From: a bacterium
GTDB taxonomy: Bacteria; Zixibacteria; MSB-5A5; WJJR01
Direction of reading: 5' to 3'
Assembly: GCA_035559435.1 (NCBI GenBank)
Contig: DATMBC010000080.1
Span: 603-64,602 of the forward strand
Length of the DNA: 64,000 nt
Below the pieces are notes generated by a model. The model saw only the letters and a program-made list of their open reading frames with translations. It was not told the DNA's origin and searched no databases. This document shows, piece after piece, positions 50,790-62,155 of this stretch (the first letter of the stretch is position 1; each line of letters begins with the position of its first letter). A program made the position numbers and the translations under genes.

Positions 50790-52262
50790 TCACGGCTGTG
50801 CCGTCAGATATACCATCGCACCAATCGCGTCTCGATACACCCTGGCGGAGAACTCCCGCAGCCGCCGCCGCGCGCCTTCCGGGTCGTGCGGCCATTGACG
50901 CAGCGCCTCCTGCACGGCCGTGGCATGTCGAACGCCGGCGTCGGCTTCGATTGCGCCAAACGCGTCACGCACTGATGCTGACACCGCGCCGTAGCGCTGC
51001 GACATGTGGTGCCGCCAGGATGTGAAGGTCCAATATGCGCTGGCGCTGTCTATGCTGAACTTCGAGCCGGTGCGGGCAGTGTATTCTTCGATTGTCGGGG
51101 CCAATCCGGCGTCGGTGTAATGGGCAGGGAATACCTCCGGATCGAAATGGAAGGGGATGTAGCACGACAGGCAGGGCGACGAGAAGCAGGCCCAATAGGT
51201 CAATCCGATTTCCTTCGGCATGTCGCCGCGCAATTCGGCGACGAAGCTGGTCTGGGTGTCATCGCCGCAGATCGGCCCGGTTGGGTTGGAGTGCGGGCAT
51301 CCGGTCAGAGAATCTGCCGCATAGAGCGGTGTGCCCTCAAAATGACTCCGCAGAATCGCCATCAACATCGGCGCATCGACCTTGCGCGCCGGCGTTACAG
51401 CGAAGGGAATCGCATCGCCATAAGCAGGAGGTTGAGCGGCGATGCGGCGGACGCCGTCCCAGCGCCGTCCGATGTTGGACGGGTGGCCGGCCGCCTCCGG
51501 AAGCGCGTACGCACGCGCGAAGTCAAAGGGGCCATCACTCGCCGCGTTGTACCAGCCGCGTTCGGTCGCGTAACTGACAACGTCGGCGGATCCCAGGAAG
51601 TTCAGCGAGTCCGTCAGGTCGATCGTTTGAATGGTGTAGGTGTTGGCGATTAGCGCCACCTGATCGTCAGGGACTCGTTGCGCCACCCAGTGACGGCCTT
51701 GCACCGCTGCCAGAAGCCAGCCCTCCTGCGGGTCGCAGATCACATAGGTCCGTCCCGAACCGGAATAGCCGAATCGCTCAATCAACTGGCCGGCCAGACG
51801 CACCCCTTCGCGCGCACTCCGGGCGCGTTCGGCAACCAGACGGCGCAGCCACCAGTTGATGCCGTCGCCATCCAGGGAGGGCTGATCTTCGCGTGAACGG
51901 CAGGCGTCGGAACAGACGCAGACGCCCCACTCATTTACATAACTGTCGGAGTACAGCAAGCCAGGAATTTCCGACCAGAGATAGGCCCAGGTCTCGGGCA
52001 CCTGTTCGAGGGGCAGGGCGCTGTCGAGTTTCACCATCGCGCCGGGGGGGTGTGTCTGACGGGGCACATAGTGGTGATTGACCACCTGCGGGTTGCCATC
52101 GTCCTCATTGTGAGCCATGGTGACAAAGCCAGTGGTAGAGACATCCTTGCCGACGACGATGGAGAAGCAGCCGCCTTCTGACGGCGGGGCCGACTGGGCG
52201 GATAGGCCGCTCAGGCAGAACGTCGCGAGCAAGACAGACAGACGGAATAGTTGCCGGCGCAT
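50790..52262 (-). CDS. C69-family dipeptidase
   Basis: Signal peptide, then GGCFSIVVGKDVSTTGFVTMAHNEDDG with the N-terminal nucleophile Cys context. Confidence 0.7.
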   Translation of the reverse strand: MRRQLFRLSVLLATFCLSGLSAQSAPPSEGGCFSIVVGKDVSTTGFVTMAHNEDDGNPQVVNHHYVPRQTHPPGAMVKLDSALPLEQVPETWAYLWSEIPGLLYSDSYVNEWGVCVCSDACRSREDQPSLDGDGINWWLRRLVAERARSAREGVRLAGQLIERFGYSGSGRTYVICDPQEGWLLAAVQGRHWVAQRVPDDQVALIANTYTIQTIDLTDSLNFLGSADVVSYATERGWYNAASDGPFDFARAYALPEAAGHPSNIGRRWDGVRRIAAQPPAYGDAIPFAVTPARKVDAPMLMAILRSHFEGTPLYAADSLTGCPHSNPTGPICGDDTQTSFVAELRGDMPKEIGLTYWACFSSPCLSCYIPFHFDPEVFPAHYTDAGLAPTIEEYTARTGSKFSIDSASAYWTFTSWRHHMSQRYGAVSASVRDAFGAIEADAGVRHATAVQEALRQWPHDPEGARRRLREFSARVYRDAIGAMVYLTAQP

Positions 52263-52343
52263 GGAACCCTCGCTTGAGTTAGTTACCTGCCGGATCGCTC
52301 TCCGGCTCCGGGCCAGCCGACCTCTCAGATCGGCAGGTCGCAT

Positions 52344-53150
52344 TTACATGAACCACCGCTTCTGCGCGTGAACGATGTCGCCGAAGCGGCGCATAAACGC
52401 CATCTCATCGTCGGCGAGGGGACCGCCATCCAGCGCGGTGAGGTTCTCCTTCAGCTGAGCCAGATTGCTGGGGGCGGTCAGGACAACATCGACTTGGGGG
52501 CTGCTCAACACAAACCGGTAGCACAAAGGCGCGGTGGGCACCGGCTCGGAGGCCGGGTATCCTTTTGGGCGCCGCAGCAGGTGGCCCCAGCGGGTGGCGG
52601 TGTAGCTGATCACGGTCGGTTTGTGGGCCAGATGCGGGAATATGTCGGATTCCGCGCCCCGGTGGGCGGCGTTATAACGCATCATGAGCGTGTCCATCGC
52701 CCCGGCCGCCATGGTCTTTCCGGCGAATGACCGATCGTGGCATGACATACCGATCCCGCGGACCTTGCCTTCCTCGCGCAGGCGCATCAATTCCTCCTGC
52801 ACCGATTCGGGGAAGTGTTTCGGCTTGGTCACGCCCAGAAGCAGGAAGAAGTCCAGGTAGTCGGCGCCGAGTTGGCGGAGGCGTTTTTCCAGCGTCCTGC
52901 GAATATTCGTATGGGTGATCAGCAGGTTGTAGGCGCCGGTGATTACGATGAAGTGGTCGCGCCCATGGCGGAACAGCTCCCGCAGCGACGTGACCATCTG
53001 TCGGTCGAAGCCGTAGCAGAAAAAGACGGTGACTCCCTGATCGACGGCGTAATGGACCGTCTGCCTGCCCGGCCAATAGCTGGCCGACAGGCCCATCCGG
53101 CGGACGGTCAATCCGGCGCCGCCCAAAACGGCGGTCTGAAAGTCGGACAT
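52344..53150 (-). CDS. Aldo/keto reductase family protein
   Basis: [11 protein letters not shown] and [11 protein letters not shown], with AKR-like length. The start is uncertain (53150 or 53231). Confidence 0.65.
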
Positions 53151-53239
53151 CCTGCGGGAATGAATGGGTCCGGCGGCCATTTCGGCAACCGGCAAGGCGT
53201 CAAAATCCCCTTCCACGGGCCCGGATTTCATCTTGTTCC

Positions 53240-53268
53240 TCGACTTTTGGCGGCGGCCCCCCTATACT
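53240..53268 (+). promoter_or_regulatory. Candidate cspA promoter
   Basis: TCGACT, 17 nt spacer, TATACT. It would give a 5' UTR of about 145 nt, similar in length to the E. coli cspA leader. Confidence 0.35.
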
Positions 53269-53419
53269 GGCGGCGAGAACCGAAACCGCCGACTTTTCTC
53301 GGACTGACCGCACAGGCAAGGACCGACGGCATTCACGGAAGAGCGTAACCGGTTTCGCGGCCGTCGGGGCCAACGGATGGGAGCACCGTGTCGCTCCCAG
53401 CAAGCAAAGGACGTGCAAG

Positions 53420-53623
53420 ATGGCAACAGGCACCGTGAAGTGGTTCAACGACGCCAAGGGCTACGGTTTCATCACGCCTGATGACGGCGGCAAAGATGTG
53501 TTCGTGCATCACCAGGCGATTCAGGCCGAGGGCTTCCGCAGTCTGAAGGAAGGCGACAAGGTGACCTACGAAGTGGTCCAGGGTCCCAAGGGTCCCCAGG
53601 CCGAGAACGTCAAGAAAGCCTGA
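53420..53623 (+). CDS. cspA: Cold-shock protein (CspA family)
   Basis: [15 protein letters not shown] (RNP1) and VFVHH (RNP2), 67 aa. Confidence 0.95.
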
Positions 53624-53642
53624 CCATTGACGCCAGATGCTG

Positions 53643-53678
53643 CCCCGGGCGGAGCGATCCGCCCGGGGTTTCTTTTTT
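53643..53678 (+). terminator. Intrinsic terminator of cspA
   Basis: CCCCGGGCGG agcgat CCGCCCGGGG followed by TTTCTTTTTT. Confidence 0.8.
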
Positions 53679-53746
53679 GGCATGACACCGCGGTCGTCGG
53701 GAATTCATCCGTCGCCGCTGCGCCGCCGACCGGTCTGCCGATCTGC

Positions 53747-55135
53747 TTACTTCCAGTGCGCGGCGATGAACGCGTCGGTATCGGGCAGGCCGCCCTGCAG
53801 GATCAGGTAGCCGTTGTGCGGCTCGCGCTGTGTGATCTCGTGGTTGATGGATGTGCGCATCATCCGCATCACCTCATCGTGATCATCCGTGTGGGCGAGC
53901 ACCCACGAGAGCTTCATGAGCGCCGTTTCGGGCAGCATGTTGTCGAGCGGGACCACGCCGAGGTCCATCAGGTCGCGTCCGGTGTCATAGACATACATTT
54001 GGGCGTAGCCCCAGAGGGTTTGCACGGTCATGACGATGTGCACACCGGCGGCGACGGCGCGTTTGAGCGCCGGGTAGAGCGGCTTGTTGACATGGCCGAG
54101 GCCGGTGCCGGCGATCACTATTCCACGATAACCTTTCTCGACCAGCGCGTCGACGAGGTCGGCGCGCATGCCGGGGTAGTAGTAGAGAATCGTGGCGCGG
54201 TCGTCGTAGACGGCGTCGATGACCACCTTGCGCGATCGGTCGCGGCGACGGAAATCGTCGGTCAGATACGAGAACTCGTCACGGCTGACCGTGGCCAACG
54301 GCGTGTCGCCCACGGTGCGGAAGGTGCTGCGGTAGGAGCTGTGCATCTTGCGGCAGCGGGTGCCGCGGTGCAAGAGGCCGTAGCGGTCGGACGTCGGCCC
54401 GAACATACAGATGACCACCTCGGCAATGTCGCCGTAGGCCGCCGAGCGCACCGAGTGAATCAGATTGAGCGCGGCATCGCTGGAGGGACGGTCGCTGGAG
54501 CGCTGGGAGCCGACCAGCACAATCGGCACCGGCGAATTCTGCACCATGAACGAGAGGATCGCGGCGGTGTGGCCCATGGTGTCGGTGCCATGCCCGATCA
54601 CGATGCCATCGGCGCCTGCCTCGATTTCGGCGCCGATCGCCTGGGCCAGTTCGATGTACTGGTCCTTCGCCATGTTCTCGGAGAAGACGCCGAAGATCTT
54701 TTTGGTCGTCAGGTTGCAGATGTCGGCCAGCTCCGGGACCGCGCCGTAGAGCTCGCCGGGAGTGAAAGCCGGGATGACCGCGCCGGTGCGATAGTCCAGA
54801 CGCGAGGCGATGGTGCCGCCGGTACCCAACAACGTCACCGCGGGCAGATCGGGCCGCCGGGGGAATTCTTTCTCCGGAATCTTGTAGACCGCGACTTTGT
54901 AGCCGACTTCGGTCACCGTGGCAATGCGATCGATGTGCACGCCGACGTTGTAGCCATTCTTCAGCTTGATCACGATGTGCGCGTCATCAAGCGTCTCGCT
55001 GCGCGGCAGGATGACGCCTTCGAAGACGCTGCCGGTGTCGTTGACCAGACGCACATCGCTCCAGACCCGTACGCCGAGTTCGGAGAGCCGGGCGCGCGCG
55101 CGGCCCTTGTATCCTTTCAGATCGTCCTCAGCCAT
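53747..55135 (-). CDS. gatD: Glu-tRNA(Gln) amidotransferase subunit D (archaeal-type, asparaginase-like)
   Basis: N-terminal GatD barrel region, then LGTGGTIAS, HGTDTM and GSQRSSDRPSSDA. Confidence 0.8.
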   Translation of the reverse strand: MAEDDLKGYKGRARARLSELGVRVWSDVRLVNDTGSVFEGVILPRSETLDDAHIVIKLKNGYNVGVHIDRIATVTEVGYKVAVYKIPEKEFPRRPDLPAVTLLGTGGTIASRLDYRTGAVIPAFTPGELYGAVPELADICNLTTKKIFGVFSENMAKDQYIELAQAIGAEIEAGADGIVIGHGTDTMGHTAAILSFMVQNSPVPIVLVGSQRSSDRPSSDAALNLIHSVRSAAYGDIAEVVICMFGPTSDRYGLLHRGTRCRKMHSSYRSTFRTVGDTPLATVSRDEFSYLTDDFRRRDRSRKVVIDAVYDDRATILYYYPGMRADLVDALVEKGYRGIVIAGTGLGHVNKPLYPALKRAVAAGVHIVMTVQTLWGYAQMYVYDTGRDLMDLGVVPLDNMLPETALMKLSWVLAHTDDHDEVMRMMRTSINHEITQREPHNGYLILQGGLPDTDAFIAAHWK

Positions 55136-57101
55136 GACGGCCCTCGGCGGATAAGTTGTGCTCGATTTCAGCGGCGACCGTCTGCGCGGAGACTTTGCCG
55201 CGCAGCGATTCCATGCACCGTCCCATGGCCAGCCGTCGCAACCGTGTCGGATCGCCGCCGGGACGCAGATCGCGGCGCGCGGCCTCGATCTGCAGCCGAA
55301 CGGTCGACGGCCAGTCGACGGGTGCCGTGCCGAGGCCCTCGACTGCGAGCAGTTCCGCGAGGGGTGTCGTTGGGCTAAGCGCCAGCTTGCGCACGATCAA
55401 CTCCCAGGCCTCGCGGAGCGCGGTTTGGTTCTTCATGGCCGCGAACAATTCACACCAGCGGGTTTCGGGGATGGCATCGACAGGAACGCGGGCACGCTGC
55501 AAGCCCTTGAGGCGCTCGCCGAAGAGGAAGCAGGCATCGCGCAGATCGCCGCCGGCCAGCGTGACCAGATCGACCAGATGGGCGCCGTTGCGGCGAATCA
55601 GGTAGTGAATGGTCGGTGTCGGCACGCCGGCGGCGCGGTAGCGCTCCTCGCGATCCCAGGGACGCGGCGCCAATTGACGACGCAATCGTTCGACCCGCTC
55701 GCGTGTGACGGGTGTCGGCGGGCTGTCGGTGTCGGGATACATGCGGTCCGGCCCGGGGAGGATGCGCTCGAAGTCAGTGTGCCCATCGCGGAACGGTTGG
55801 CGCGTCTCATTGGGGACCCCATCGATAGCATCGGCGTAGCGCTTCTGAATTTCCTCCGTGGCCGTCACGGTGTCGGCTTCGGACCCCCAGACGATGACGA
55901 CCGCGTCGCCGGGGTCGCAGTGCAGACGGGCGCGGAGGCGGCGCAGGTCGGCCACCGAGCCTTCATAGTCGGGCCATTTCTCATCATGGAAGAGGATCGG
56001 GATCTGGTCGAGCCCGGCGATGACGCGGATGCGTCCGGCCAGTTCCGAGGCGAAGGTCAAGTCGGGTTGGGTCGGCCAGTTGAGCGTGCCGGTCAGTCCT
56101 TTCAGACGCACCGCGCGCACGCAGAAGGGACCCGCGCCCAGTTCGAATCCGGGGCGCCGTCCGGTGGATGCCACCCACTTCTCCCACGATTCGATGCGAA
56201 ACGGCTTGAACGCGCAAGTGGAAAACAGGTCGGTCACATTGACGCTGTCGATTTTGAGGTCCTCGGGACGGCGGAATCCGCGTCTGTGCAATTCATCGCG
56301 CAGCCGCAGCAGGTTCATCTGCCGAACCGCTTCGCCGTGCACCAGCCGTACTGCCCAGTGCGCCTGCGGCACACCCTTAATCTCGACGCGCCGTCCGCCG
56401 CGCACCGAGACGTTGACATCCTGACGGCTGGCGCCGATGCCCACGCGGACATGGCCAGTGCTGCGGCAGACTCGGCCCACCAGCAGGATGGCCTCGGCCA
56501 CCTCCTCGGGCGTGCGCAGGTCGGGCCCGGTCACCGTCTCGATCAACGGCATTCCCAGGCGGTCGGTGCGCCAGACGATCAGATGGCCGCGGTCGGACAC
56601 CTCGCGGCAGGAATCCTCCTCCACGCTGACCTGCGTGATTGAGATCTCGCGGCCGCGGAAGGGGAGTCGGCCGTTGACGCCGACAATCGCCGTGCGCTGG
56701 AACCCGGTCGGGATCGAGCCGTCCAGGTACTGCTTGCGGGCAATATGCACCTCATCGACGATGTCACAGCCCAGCATCAGGCATTGCTCGATGGCAATGT
56801 CAATCGCCTGCTGGTTGACGAGGAAGGGCGGGGTGTCGTCCATCTCGTAGGTGCAGACATTCTCTTTGTGCAACAGGTAGATGATGTTCTTCTTGGTCCG
56901 GAACTCCATCAACGCGGTGCCGTCGTATTCACCGAGTTCGGAGAGGGTCGGACGCATGTGCCGCAGCACCTCGCCGTCATGGGTCTCGGTGTAGCGACCG
57001 GCGGGGCAGTGGCAAAACATCTTGCTGTCGGTCAGCAGTTGCTGGTGGACTTCCAGTCCGGCGCGGAGGCCGAGTTCCTGGTAGTCGATGATGGAAGGCA
57101 T
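55128..57101 (-). CDS. gatE: Glu-tRNA(Gln) amidotransferase subunit E (archaeal-type)
   Basis: GLEVHQQL...KMFCHCP cradle-domain start, an insertion domain and a C-terminal helical tail. 8-bp overlap with gatD. Confidence 0.8.
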   Translation of the reverse strand: MPSIIDYQELGLRAGLEVHQQLLTDSKMFCHCPAGRYTETHDGEVLRHMRPTLSELGEYDGTALMEFRTKKNIIYLLHKENVCTYEMDDTPPFLVNQQAIDIAIEQCLMLGCDIVDEVHIARKQYLDGSIPTGFQRTAIVGVNGRLPFRGREISITQVSVEEDSCREVSDRGHLIVWRTDRLGMPLIETVTGPDLRTPEEVAEAILLVGRVCRSTGHVRVGIGASRQDVNVSVRGGRRVEIKGVPQAHWAVRLVHGEAVRQMNLLRLRDELHRRGFRRPEDLKIDSVNVTDLFSTCAFKPFRIESWEKWVASTGRRPGFELGAGPFCVRAVRLKGLTGTLNWPTQPDLTFASELAGRIRVIAGLDQIPILFHDEKWPDYEGSVADLRRLRARLHCDPGDAVVIVWGSEADTVTATEEIQKRYADAIDGVPNETRQPFRDGHTDFERILPGPDRMYPDTDSPPTPVTRERVERLRRQLAPRPWDREERYRAAGVPTPTIHYLIRRNGAHLVDLVTLAGGDLRDACFLFGERLKGLQRARVPVDAIPETRWCELFAAMKNQTALREAWELIVRKLALSPTTPLAELLAVEGLGTAPVDWPSTVRLQIEAARRDLRPGGDPTRLRRLAMGRCMESLRGKVSAQTVAAEIEHNLSAEGRHG

Positions 57102-57472
57102 GCCTGACAAGTTGTCCGACCCCTTTCGATACAAAGCCGCGGAGAGAATAAGCCGGATGTGCCGCCGGGGACAGCACGCAATCAACTGCAGCGTCAAAAT
57201 CGCCGGCCAATCCGACGGTGGTATTTGAATCCTTTTTCGGCCCAAGGCAACGAGTTATGTGAACGCCGGCGCGACGATGAACGAGCTCCACCGCGATTCG
57301 GCCTCCGGGAGACCCCATTCGATCTCGCCTTCTTCGCGTCACGGCCATGTTTCTCACCGACGAACACAAAACACGATTTGGGGAATGGCGATTATATTTA
57401 TCCTGTATGCCATCCCGCCGATGGCCAAAGCTGTTCGTACCGCGATGACCAAATAAACAGGAGAGCTTTCCT

Positions 57473-61752: not shown

Positions 61753-61797
61753 GCGTGGGTTGGGCAGTAGCGAGAACCGAGCGAACGGATCAATGAG

Positions 61798-62155
61798 TGG
61801 AGGCGGGGGGAATCGAACCCCCGTCCGAAAGTGCCGCGTGAAGGCCGTCTACCCGCGTAGTCGGTCGTTTGTATTCGCACCGCCGGCGCCGAGCGACAGG
61901 CTACGGCGGTGCTATCCCGGCTTGAGTTTCGCATCGGACCGGCGGGAGCGATCCGGTGCTATCCCTCATTTTCGGCCAGCGGGCCAGCCGCCGAGGGCGG
62001 GCTTCCGACCCGTGGGGCAGTCTATCCTAAGTTAGGCTGCCAGCGCATACGAGTTATCGTAGGCGTTTGTGTTGTTTCCCAAGGGTTTAGCGAGGACTCG
62101 GGGACCTCGGCGGGCAAACCTTCCTTTGGCGACTCCGTCGAAACCAGTCGCCCCC
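61798..62155 (-). ncRNA. ssrA: tmRNA (SsrA)
   Basis: 5' GGGGGCGACTGGTTTCGACGG and 3' GGACGGGGGTTCGATTCCCCCCGCCTCCA. Acceptor stem with G3-U70. Tag frame 62079-62032 encodes GNNTNAYDNSYALAA and a stop. Confidence 0.9.

Follow-up and report, generated by a model that had tools for sequence, protein, structure and literature searches.

A GatDE amidotransferase operon in a bacterial genome: a probable second route to Gln-tRNA with an Acidobacteriota-like origin

The heterodimeric amidotransferase GatDE serves as a signature enzyme of Archaea and is used in arguments on the evolution of glutaminyl-tRNA (Gln-tRNA) formation: reviews describe it as restricted to Archaea, and it has been argued that GatDE and the archaeal tRNA(Gln) co-evolved and kept glutaminyl-tRNA synthetase (GlnRS) out of this domain (PMC9499178). 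In Thermus, Deinococcus and Bdellovibrio an amidotransferase is kept beside GlnRS and asparaginyl-tRNA synthetase (AsnRS); this enzyme is GatCAB, and it serves asparagine biosynthesis in the absence of AsnA and AsnB (PMC4206432). Here we describe a gatE-gatD operon (gatED) in a stretch of 64,000 nucleotides of bacterial DNA, called the window in the following (C80:603-64602; the assembly has 3.0 Mb in 106 contigs, with estimates of 100% for completeness and 0.75% for contamination). The host genome probably belongs to the Eisenbacteria, a phylum name taken here from the submitter's label 'Candidatus Eisenbacteria bacterium' on a 94%-identical GatD. The operon consists of the following elements:

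55128..57101, minus strand: gatE, 657 aa from an ATG, kinase/transamidase subunit of GatDE
53747..55135, minus strand: gatD, 462 aa, asparaginase-type glutaminase subunit of GatDE
55128..55135, minus strand: 8-nt overlap of the gatE stop with the gatD start (ATGGCTGA), read from the sequence

The coordinates of the two overlapping minus-strand open reading frames (ORFs), and the 657 aa of GatE, are exactly those which the initial annotation of this DNA had given. A TTG at 57245 would be an alternative upstream start of gatE, giving 705 aa; in the alignments of all relatives, however, the match begins at residue 1-7 of the shorter protein (657 aa). The 8-nt overlap suggests translational coupling of the two genes. 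We consider it likely that gatED encodes a working heterodimeric tRNA-dependent amidotransferase of bacterial type, which would provide a second route to Gln-tRNA and was obtained from an Acidobacteriota-type donor.

Profile searches clearly identified both subunits. GatD reached 500.8 bits with NF003217 (cut-off 310) and 498.9 bits with TIGR02153, it contains the Pfam domains GatD_N (54 bits), Asparaginase N and Asparaginase C, and it matched the archaeal chains 1zq1_A and 2d6f_A with 400 and 391 bits, respectively. All the motifs on which the pair had originally been recognized are present (TGGTIAS, HGTDTM and GSQRSSDRPSSDA in GatD, GLEVHQQL..KMFCHCP in GatE), and TGGTIASR, HGTDTM and QRSSDRPSSDA of GatD could be aligned with both archaeal chains. 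GatD also passed the cut-off of the type I asparaginase model TIGR00519 (359 bits, cut-off 260.5), which is expected for a GatD, the GatD equivalogs scoring approximately 140 bits higher. A free-standing type I L-asparaginase was rejected, since GatD_N is present, the GatD equivalogs score higher and gatE overlaps the start of gatD.

GatE scored 467.4 bits with NF003107 (cut-off 456) and 406.9 bits with TIGR00134 (cut-off 319.6), its cradle domain was recognized by PF02934 with 158.5 bits, and phmmer aligned residues 5-648 of 657 with the Pyrococcus abyssi GatE 1zq1_C at 312 bits. On the GatB models it did not exceed 125.6 bits, the GatB cut-offs being at least 315 (338 for the best model), and GatB structures were matched with 37-82 bits by phmmer and with E values of 1e-18 to 1e-26 by Foldseek. 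GatE as the GatB of GatCAB, a protein of about 480 aa that has no insertion domain, was discarded because it lies far under the GatB cut-offs and the true gatB is found elsewhere (C65:69393-70826, 548 bits). The initial proposal is thus borne out: the two genes, located on a bacterial chromosome, are a true GatD/GatE pair, neither a GatB or asparaginase paralogue nor a chimera. Both proteins pass the cut-offs of their own equivalogs and score far higher there than on the GatB and asparaginase models.

In an alignment of 48 bacterial and archaeal GatE sequences the cradle residues H19, E161, E162, R181, E188, R226, D228, N230, S232, E240 and K242 are invariant, as are the blocks GVPxETR and RxxPGxxRMYPxTD. 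The AlphaFold2 model of GatE calculated from the same alignment (predicted local distance difference test, pLDDT, 92.5; predicted template modelling score, pTM, 0.88) had as top Foldseek matches 1zq1_C (E 1.9e-46) and the tRNA(Gln) complex 2d6f, followed by GatB chains, and its template modelling (TM) score to archaeal GatE, normalised to the target, was 0.79-0.82 (1zq1_C 0.82). The model contains a confidently folded insertion at about residues 284-407, for which weak Foldseek matches to aspartyl-tRNA synthetase (AspRS) were obtained (probability 0.8-0.89); its tail, residues 467-656, is helical throughout (pLDDT >90). Pfam GAD, GatB_Yqey and YqeY were not detected in the window GatE even at E<=10, where P. 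abyssi GatE gave 70.7 bits with GAD and 108.5 bits with the tail model. According to the model, the tRNA-reading modules of GatE are kept in fold and strongly diverged in sequence, and this divergence fits a U1-A72 substrate rather than the archaeal A1-U72.

The divergence of the insertion and tail domains would also suit a repurposed paralogue, that is, a pair acting on something other than aminoacyl-tRNA, or having a regulatory or quality-control role apart from Gln-tRNA supply; furthermore, most GatDE genomes of the phylum hold GlnRS, AsnRS and often AsnB, and no charging gap exists there. Such a change of function is nevertheless quite improbable in view of the cradle residues common to GatB and archaeal GatE, which are all invariant, and of the four-part architecture, predicted at high confidence in a model that best matches the tRNA-bound GatE structure; in addition, both proteins exceed the equivalog cut-offs, and tRNA-Gln, gltX and glnS occur as neighbours.

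The gene content of the rest of the genome defines the setting in which the pair would work. GlnRS (glnS) was not found in this genome, the sole match being the glutamyl-tRNA synthetase (GluRS) at 52 bits. There is one copy of GluRS (C89, L004:697-2244, minus strand), one bacterial-type AspRS and an AsnRS (464 bits), and the two tRNA-Gln species, with anticodons UUG and CUG, each have a U1-A72 first pair. Since GlnRS is lacking and only one GluRS is encoded, this GluRS must also glutamylate tRNA-Gln, and the indirect route to Gln-tRNA is obligatory in the organism. At the same time gatA (584 bits) adjoins gatB on C65, and gatC (70.7 bits with TIGR00135, cut-off 47.1) is located on C54, unlinked to them; with a complete GatCAB in the same genome, GatDE supplements it as a second, parallel route. 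The initial annotation had proposed that the pair replaced or supplements GatCAB; with gatA, gatB and gatC all found and glnS not, the second alternative stands and replacement is dismissed. A gap of 90 bp separates gatA-gatB from the glutamine synthetase gene glnA (441 aa), its direct upstream neighbour (C65:66553-70826).

In the proposed mechanism the single GluRS would charge both tRNA-Gln species (UUG and CUG) with glutamate, GatD, an amidase of the asparaginase fold, would free ammonia from glutamine or asparagine, and GatE would use ATP to activate (phosphorylate) the side-chain carboxyl of Glu-tRNA(Gln) and amidate it to Gln-tRNA(Gln), with GatCAB working in parallel. Homology and gene content suggest Glu-tRNA(Gln) as the substrate, a non-discriminating GluRS and a non-archaeal mode of tRNA recognition. 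The specificity of the window GatDE for Glu-tRNA(Gln) would be in line with the absence of GlnRS, the single GluRS and the tRNA-Gln, gltX and glnS genes neighbouring the operon in relatives, which support it indirectly.

The residue equivalent to Arg358 of the Thermus thermophilus GluRS was considered as a marker of discriminating versus non-discriminating enzymes and turned out to be uninformative: Arg occurs in all 61 Eisenbacteria GluRS compared (that of the host and of 60 other genomes, including genomes that must have a non-discriminating enzyme). The motif around this position in the host GluRS differs from that of the usual Eisenbacteria GluRS. GluRS of the genus is 74-82% identical to its relatives, among them the GlnRS-less Eisenbacteria genome G065 (75%); sequences labelled Clostridia are found one step further down, among matches of 59-64% identity. 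These comparisons suggest that GluRS may also have been replaced when GlnRS was lost.

By ARAGORN, 45 tRNAs were found in all 106 contigs. No tRNA-Asp was among them and low-threshold candidates were not credible; an assembly gap is the likely cause. Besides the canonical tRNA-Asn (C70:67467-67540) a second tRNA(GUU) with a tRNA-Gln body is encoded at C65:3888-3962 (minus strand), with the acceptor stem UGGGG.../...CCCCA and an encoded CCA; its acceptor stem, D-arm and T-arm are almost those of the tRNA-Gln(UUG) of the same genome. This Gln-like tRNA(GUU) might be a dedicated substrate of a tRNA-dependent route.

AsnB-type asparagine synthetase was found in none of the six genomes of the genus at E<=1e-40, the host genome contains no long ORF with an SGGxDS motif and MCG start as in AsnB, and AsnA gave no tblastn match there (best E 0.047) with an approximate Escherichia coli AsnA query. 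Because the genus lacks AsnB and apparently AsnA, it may depend on GatCAB for tRNA-dependent asparagine synthesis as well, and an archaea-like division of labour, with GatDE for Gln and GatCAB for Asn, is possible by analogy. In the phylum AsnB occurs in 165/281 genomes; besides the six of the genus, it is missing from most genomes of the families f1 and f2 (G000, G268-G281). This AsnB-less lineage may rely either on imported asparagine, many secreted peptidases being encoded nearby, or on tRNA-dependent synthesis.

The same observations (no AsnB in the genus, AsnA unmatched with the approximate query) could indicate that GatDE itself acts on Asp-tRNA(Asn), alone or besides Glu-tRNA(Gln), and makes asparagine on tRNA as GatCAB does in Thermus and Deinococcus; bacterial tRNA-Asn and tRNA-Gln are alike in U1-A72, the second tRNA(GUU) has a tRNA-Gln-like body, and the tRNA-reading domains of GatE have diverged. 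We nevertheless judge this unlikely: AsnRS is present and GatCAB is available for the task, GatDE does not track AsnB loss in the phylum (see below), the linkage is to tRNA-Gln, gltX and glnS and not to aspS or asnS, and archaeal GatDE, where characterised, acts specifically on Glu-tRNA(Gln) (PMC9499178).

Turning to the origin of the operon, the identities of the window proteins to their relatives are as follows:

G277 (same genus): GatE 98%, GatD 99%
G276 (same genus): GatE 83%, GatD 94%
Other Eisenbacteria, including other genera of the family: GatE 42-53%, GatD 61-68%
Acidobacteriota metagenome-assembled genomes (MAGs): GatE 65-75%, GatD 78-87%

The phylum's own GatE had no match above 55% to the named loci. 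In the GatE tree (126 rows, IQ-TREE with LG+C20, quick search, support by the SH-like approximate likelihood ratio test, SH-aLRT, only, GatB outgroup) the eight euryarchaeal anchors form one clade (SH-aLRT 99) opposite to 117 bacterial rows (SH-aLRT 81), and the Eisenbacteria appear in at least five separate places. The window genus is sister to a Vicinamibacterales MAG (SH-aLRT 96) and is nested in a 26-row clade with 22 Acidobacteriota (SH-aLRT 97), itself inside a 45-row clade (SH-aLRT 100). The GatD tree agrees, with a 17-row clade containing 14 Acidobacteriota (SH-aLRT 97). A single clade of the family's six GatE was rejected by the approximately unbiased (AU) test (log-likelihood difference 456.7, p=0.0024), a group chosen, to the detriment of the argument, after the identity values were known.

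These results point to a gatED that is not of the type usual in its phylum and came from Acidobacteriota-like bacteria. The initial annotation had suggested, as one of two alternatives, an old inter-domain transfer, and that GatD and GatE phylogenies be built; both trees place the window genus in an Acidobacteriota clade, and from this nesting the proximate event was a transfer between bacteria. The window copy did not come straight from archaea. The bacterial GatDE branch as a whole may go back to an old inter-domain transfer or to a common ancestor.

None of the genes flanking gatED in the window stands beside gatED in the Acidobacteriota-type loci; co-transfer of flanking genes was thus rejected, and the transferred unit was the two-gene operon. 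With a GC content of 0.648 (genome 0.636) the operon ranks at the 71st percentile, and in tetranucleotide distance it takes the 48th percentile among random 3.36-kb segments of the genome. The composition is backbone-like, as had been noticed before, which is no argument against transfer between bacteria.

A misjoined Acidobacteriota segment, introduced by assembly or binning, would also explain why Acidobacteriota MAGs provide the nearest relatives beyond the genus. Such an artefact is hardly conceivable: the operon lies in the middle of a 70-kb contig, the independent assembly G277 of the same genus is collinear with window positions 51196-57104 at 92.7% DNA identity (a 5.9-kb block with the C69 peptidase, aldo-keto reductase, cspA, gatD and gatE), and in G276, another independent assembly of the genus, the operon is found in a 1.76-Mb contig, approximately 5 kb from ssrA. 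The flanking genes without counterpart in Acidobacteriota loci, the genome-typical tetranucleotide composition and the low contamination estimate argue in the same direction.

The GatB tree of the genus is ((G000, G277), (G275, G276)) with support 97/96, G273 and G274 being outside. GatDE is encoded in G000, G277 and G276 and is absent from 3/6 species genomes of the genus, where G275 is only 80% complete; the simplest reading is one gain in the four-species subclade. In this reading an Acidobacteriota-type donor would have passed the two genes to this subclade as one unit, which would have been under purifying selection since then. The dN/dS ratio was 0.060 versus G277 and 0.082 versus G276 for gatE, and 0.020 and 0.032, respectively, for gatD, with dS up to about 1.4 and near saturation for G276. 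Given values of 0.02-0.08 within the genus, gatED is functional and kept by purifying selection. Redundancy with GatCAB and the patchy presence in the genus would be expected of a neutral, decaying passenger pair that has no function now, yet we find this very improbable, because both frames are intact in three species, the dN/dS values remain low over the whole range of dS and the catalytic residues are conserved.

Several points weigh against a working GatDE as second route to Gln-tRNA with an Acidobacteriota-type donor. GatCAB is complete in the same genome, and the sister species G273 and G274 lack both GatDE and GlnRS, so that GatCAB alone can suffice and GatDE is not essential in the genus. 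The tRNA-Gln of the host has U1-A72 and not the A1-U72 read by archaeal GatDE (PMC9499178); the window GatDE cannot use the archaeal first-pair determinant, although its family membership is unaffected. Pfam does not recognize the diverged GAD-like insertion and YqeY-like tail in GatE, so that substrate choice could differ. The large trees were made by quick search with an archaeal sample of Euryarchaeota only. Finally, GlnRS is also encoded in 167/184 GatE-bearing genomes of the phylum, thus filling in for a missing GlnRS is not the general reason to keep GatDE.

The survey of the phylum covered 285 species genomes, all of one class, 198 of them high-quality; the incompleteness of MAGs bears on whether a gene is scored as present or absent. 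The counts were:

GatE: 166/285 above cut-off, 184 at E<1e-50
GatD: 178/285 above cut-off, 144/198 high-quality genomes with a match at the E-value threshold used
GatB: 139/285 above cut-off
GlnRS: 222/285 above cut-off, 171/198 high-quality genomes with a match
AsnRS: 252/285 above cut-off, 196/198 high-quality genomes with a match
GluRS: 263/285 above cut-off, 192/198 high-quality genomes with a match

Cross-tabulation at E<1e-50 for GatE and GatB and E<=1e-60 for GlnRS gave:

GatE, GatB and GlnRS: 79 genomes
GatE and GatB without GlnRS: 15 genomes, the host among them
GatE and GlnRS without GatB: 88 genomes
GatE without GatB and GlnRS: 2 genomes
GatB and GlnRS without GatE: 25 genomes
GatB without GatE and GlnRS: 24 genomes
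GlnRS without GatE and GatB: 35 genomes
None of the three: 17 genomes, mostly incomplete bins

That the pair might prove routine in its lineage had been foreseen as an outcome removing the novelty but not the call, and the GatD count above bears this out. AsnB is present in 64/88 genomes with GatE and GlnRS but no GatB, versus 18/35 without any amidotransferase; since it is commoner and not rarer there, GatDE as a replacement of asparagine synthetase is not supported at the phylum level. With GlnRS and AsnB mostly present, GatDE in the phylum is not explained by a missing synthetase or asparagine synthetase, most of the genomes that bear it also having GlnRS and AsnRS. A dedicated second GluRS accompanying GatDE was likewise rejected, GluRS being single-copy in all but 2 of 266 genomes. 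Some families have gatD next to gatE, others have the two genes unlinked; nearly the same genomes encode them (GatD in 178, GatE in 184), and they are co-inherited even without linkage. In several families gltX and/or glnS adjoin gatE: the gene order in G278 is gltX, glnS, gatE, gatD, and gltX lies within a few kb of gatE in G254, G255, G257 and G249.

Beyond the phylum, in a scan of one genome per prokaryotic species, at least 596 stretches encode GatE relatives. The best 80 were examined: all are from bacterial MAGs, of Acidobacteriota (Vicinamibacterales, Thermoanaerobaculia, Holophagales), Myxococcota, Planctomycetota, Ignavibacteriota/Bacteroidota, Aminicenantes, KSB1 and Eisenbacteria, and in nearly all of them gatD is directly downstream of gatE. 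The archaea-only distribution is contradicted by these species genomes, together with the 178/285 genomes of the phylum with GatD. In the loci L039 and L058 a tRNA-Gln(CUG) with U1-A72 stands immediately upstream of gatE. At the corresponding place in L057 (4188-4263; Holophagaceae MAG, PLUC01000041.1), related to L058, there is a tRNA with a Gln-like body and the anticodon CUA, labelled 'tRNA-Pyl' by ARAGORN; its position 37 is C, and by its sequence this tRNA would be a tRNA-Gln derivative of the supE amber-suppressor type.

Around the operon the following features were recognized in the window:

57102..57472, minus strand: intergenic region of 371 bp from gatE to a divergent fibre-like gene, from the ORF map and sequence
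53642..53669, no strand assigned: GC-rich hairpin between the convergent cspA and gatD, with a 12-bp stem of 10 G-C pairs and a T-tail on the plus strand
61797-62155: transfer-messenger RNA (tmRNA) gene ssrA

The promoter of gatED is presumed to lie in the intergenic region on the evidence of the ORF map and sequence; no sigma-70-like site was found there by consensus scan. The hairpin, which carries its T-tail on the plus strand of cspA, is recognizable from its sequence as the predicted intrinsic terminator of cspA, in accordance with the initial annotation; a T-tail is absent on the minus strand, and it may also end the gatED transcript. A bacterial setting, as reported earlier, was confirmed: the neighbours include CspA (cold-shock domain, 110 bits), the aldo-keto reductase, C69 and DPP-IV/S9 peptidases and the tmRNA, and in addition two proteins with S74 chaperone domains, and two fibre-like genes between gatE and ssrA.

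The chromosomal neighbourhood near ssrA differs among the species of the genus. Copies of the ssrA 3'-end (25-28 nt, 96-100% identical), a signature of small islands at ssrA, lie 1.2-2.6 kb from the tmRNA gene in G274 (C20:67292-67316 and 68662-68689) and G277 (C31:436-462). The window contains no further copy of the ssrA 3'-end and no direct repeat flanking gatED; an island boundary at ssrA or att sites was rejected for the operon on these grounds.

Public annotation at NCBI already calls such MAG proteins GatD and GatE, and in this sense their names are known; a full-text search found no literature description of bacterial GatDE. What is new here is the phylum-wide co-occurrence table, in which GatDE is mostly accompanied by GlnRS, AsnRS and AsnB, the evidence of gatED movement between bacterial phyla, and a genome with both amidotransferases and without GlnRS. 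We tentatively put forward a broader possibility, to which we give somewhat less than even chances: bacterial GatDE would be a long-established lineage of its own over many phyla, exchanged among them, with a non-redundant role and with tRNA-recognition modules rebuilt for U1-A72. If this were true, GatDE would be kept in about two thirds of Eisenbacteria species for a role unforeseen by the current models of Gln-tRNA formation. GatDE might then be indispensable for removing the Glu-tRNA(Gln) that a GluRS which is still non-discriminating produces; it might instead come into use depending on the amide donor or under stress, or serve a distinct tRNA.

A broad bacterial branch, which has U1-A72 tRNAs and bacterial GluRS, moves between phyla and stands beside GlnRS in most genomes of the phylum, speaks against the premise of an archaea-only enzyme and likewise against the view that GatDE and GlnRS are incompatible. 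The locus is a clean test case: its genome combines two different amidotransferases with a single GluRS and lacks GlnRS. In practice, GatD and GatE in reconstructions of uncultured bacteria should not be counted as archaeal contamination.

Compared with archaeal GatDE (Methanothermobacter thermautotrophicus 2D6F with tRNA(Gln), P. abyssi 1ZQ1), the window encodes the same two subunits: GatD is built of GatD_N and the asparaginase fold, and GatE has, in the predicted fold, the same layout of cradle, AspRS-like insertion, helical part and tail. The GatD motifs align, the GatE cradle residues are invariant, the pair passes equivalog hidden Markov model cut-offs built for the archaeal family, and the archaeal hosts, like the host of the window, are without GlnRS. 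The differences are likewise clear: the host is bacterial and its partner GluRS bacterial-type, GatE identity is only 31-34%, and the Pfam GAD domain and YqeY/GatB tail are detected in P. abyssi GatE and not in the window GatE. The archaeal identity set of tRNA(Gln) comprises the A1-U72 pair and the D-loop, the latter read by the helical YqeY/GatB-type tail; the tRNA-Gln of the host has U1-A72 instead. Moreover, beside the window copy there is a GatCAB, the enzyme on which sister species must rely for Gln-tRNA; the copies of the phylum stand mostly beside GlnRS, which no archaeon has (PMC9499178).

With bacterial GatCAB (3IP4, 3KFU, 3AL0) the chemistry is the same, and GatE and GatB have the cradle domain and, as predicted, the tail in common; GatB, like GatE, must recognise U1-A72 tRNAs in bacteria, and the window genome has both enzymes. 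The glutaminase subunits are unrelated, GatA being amidase-type and GatD asparaginase-type; GatDE has no GatC, and the predicted AspRS-like insertion of GatE is absent from GatB. Thermus, Deinococcus and Bdellovibrio show the same retention of an amidotransferase despite direct charging enzymes as the 167 GatE genomes of the phylum with GlnRS, but in the phylum this part is played by GatDE, and most of the genomes concerned also have AsnB.

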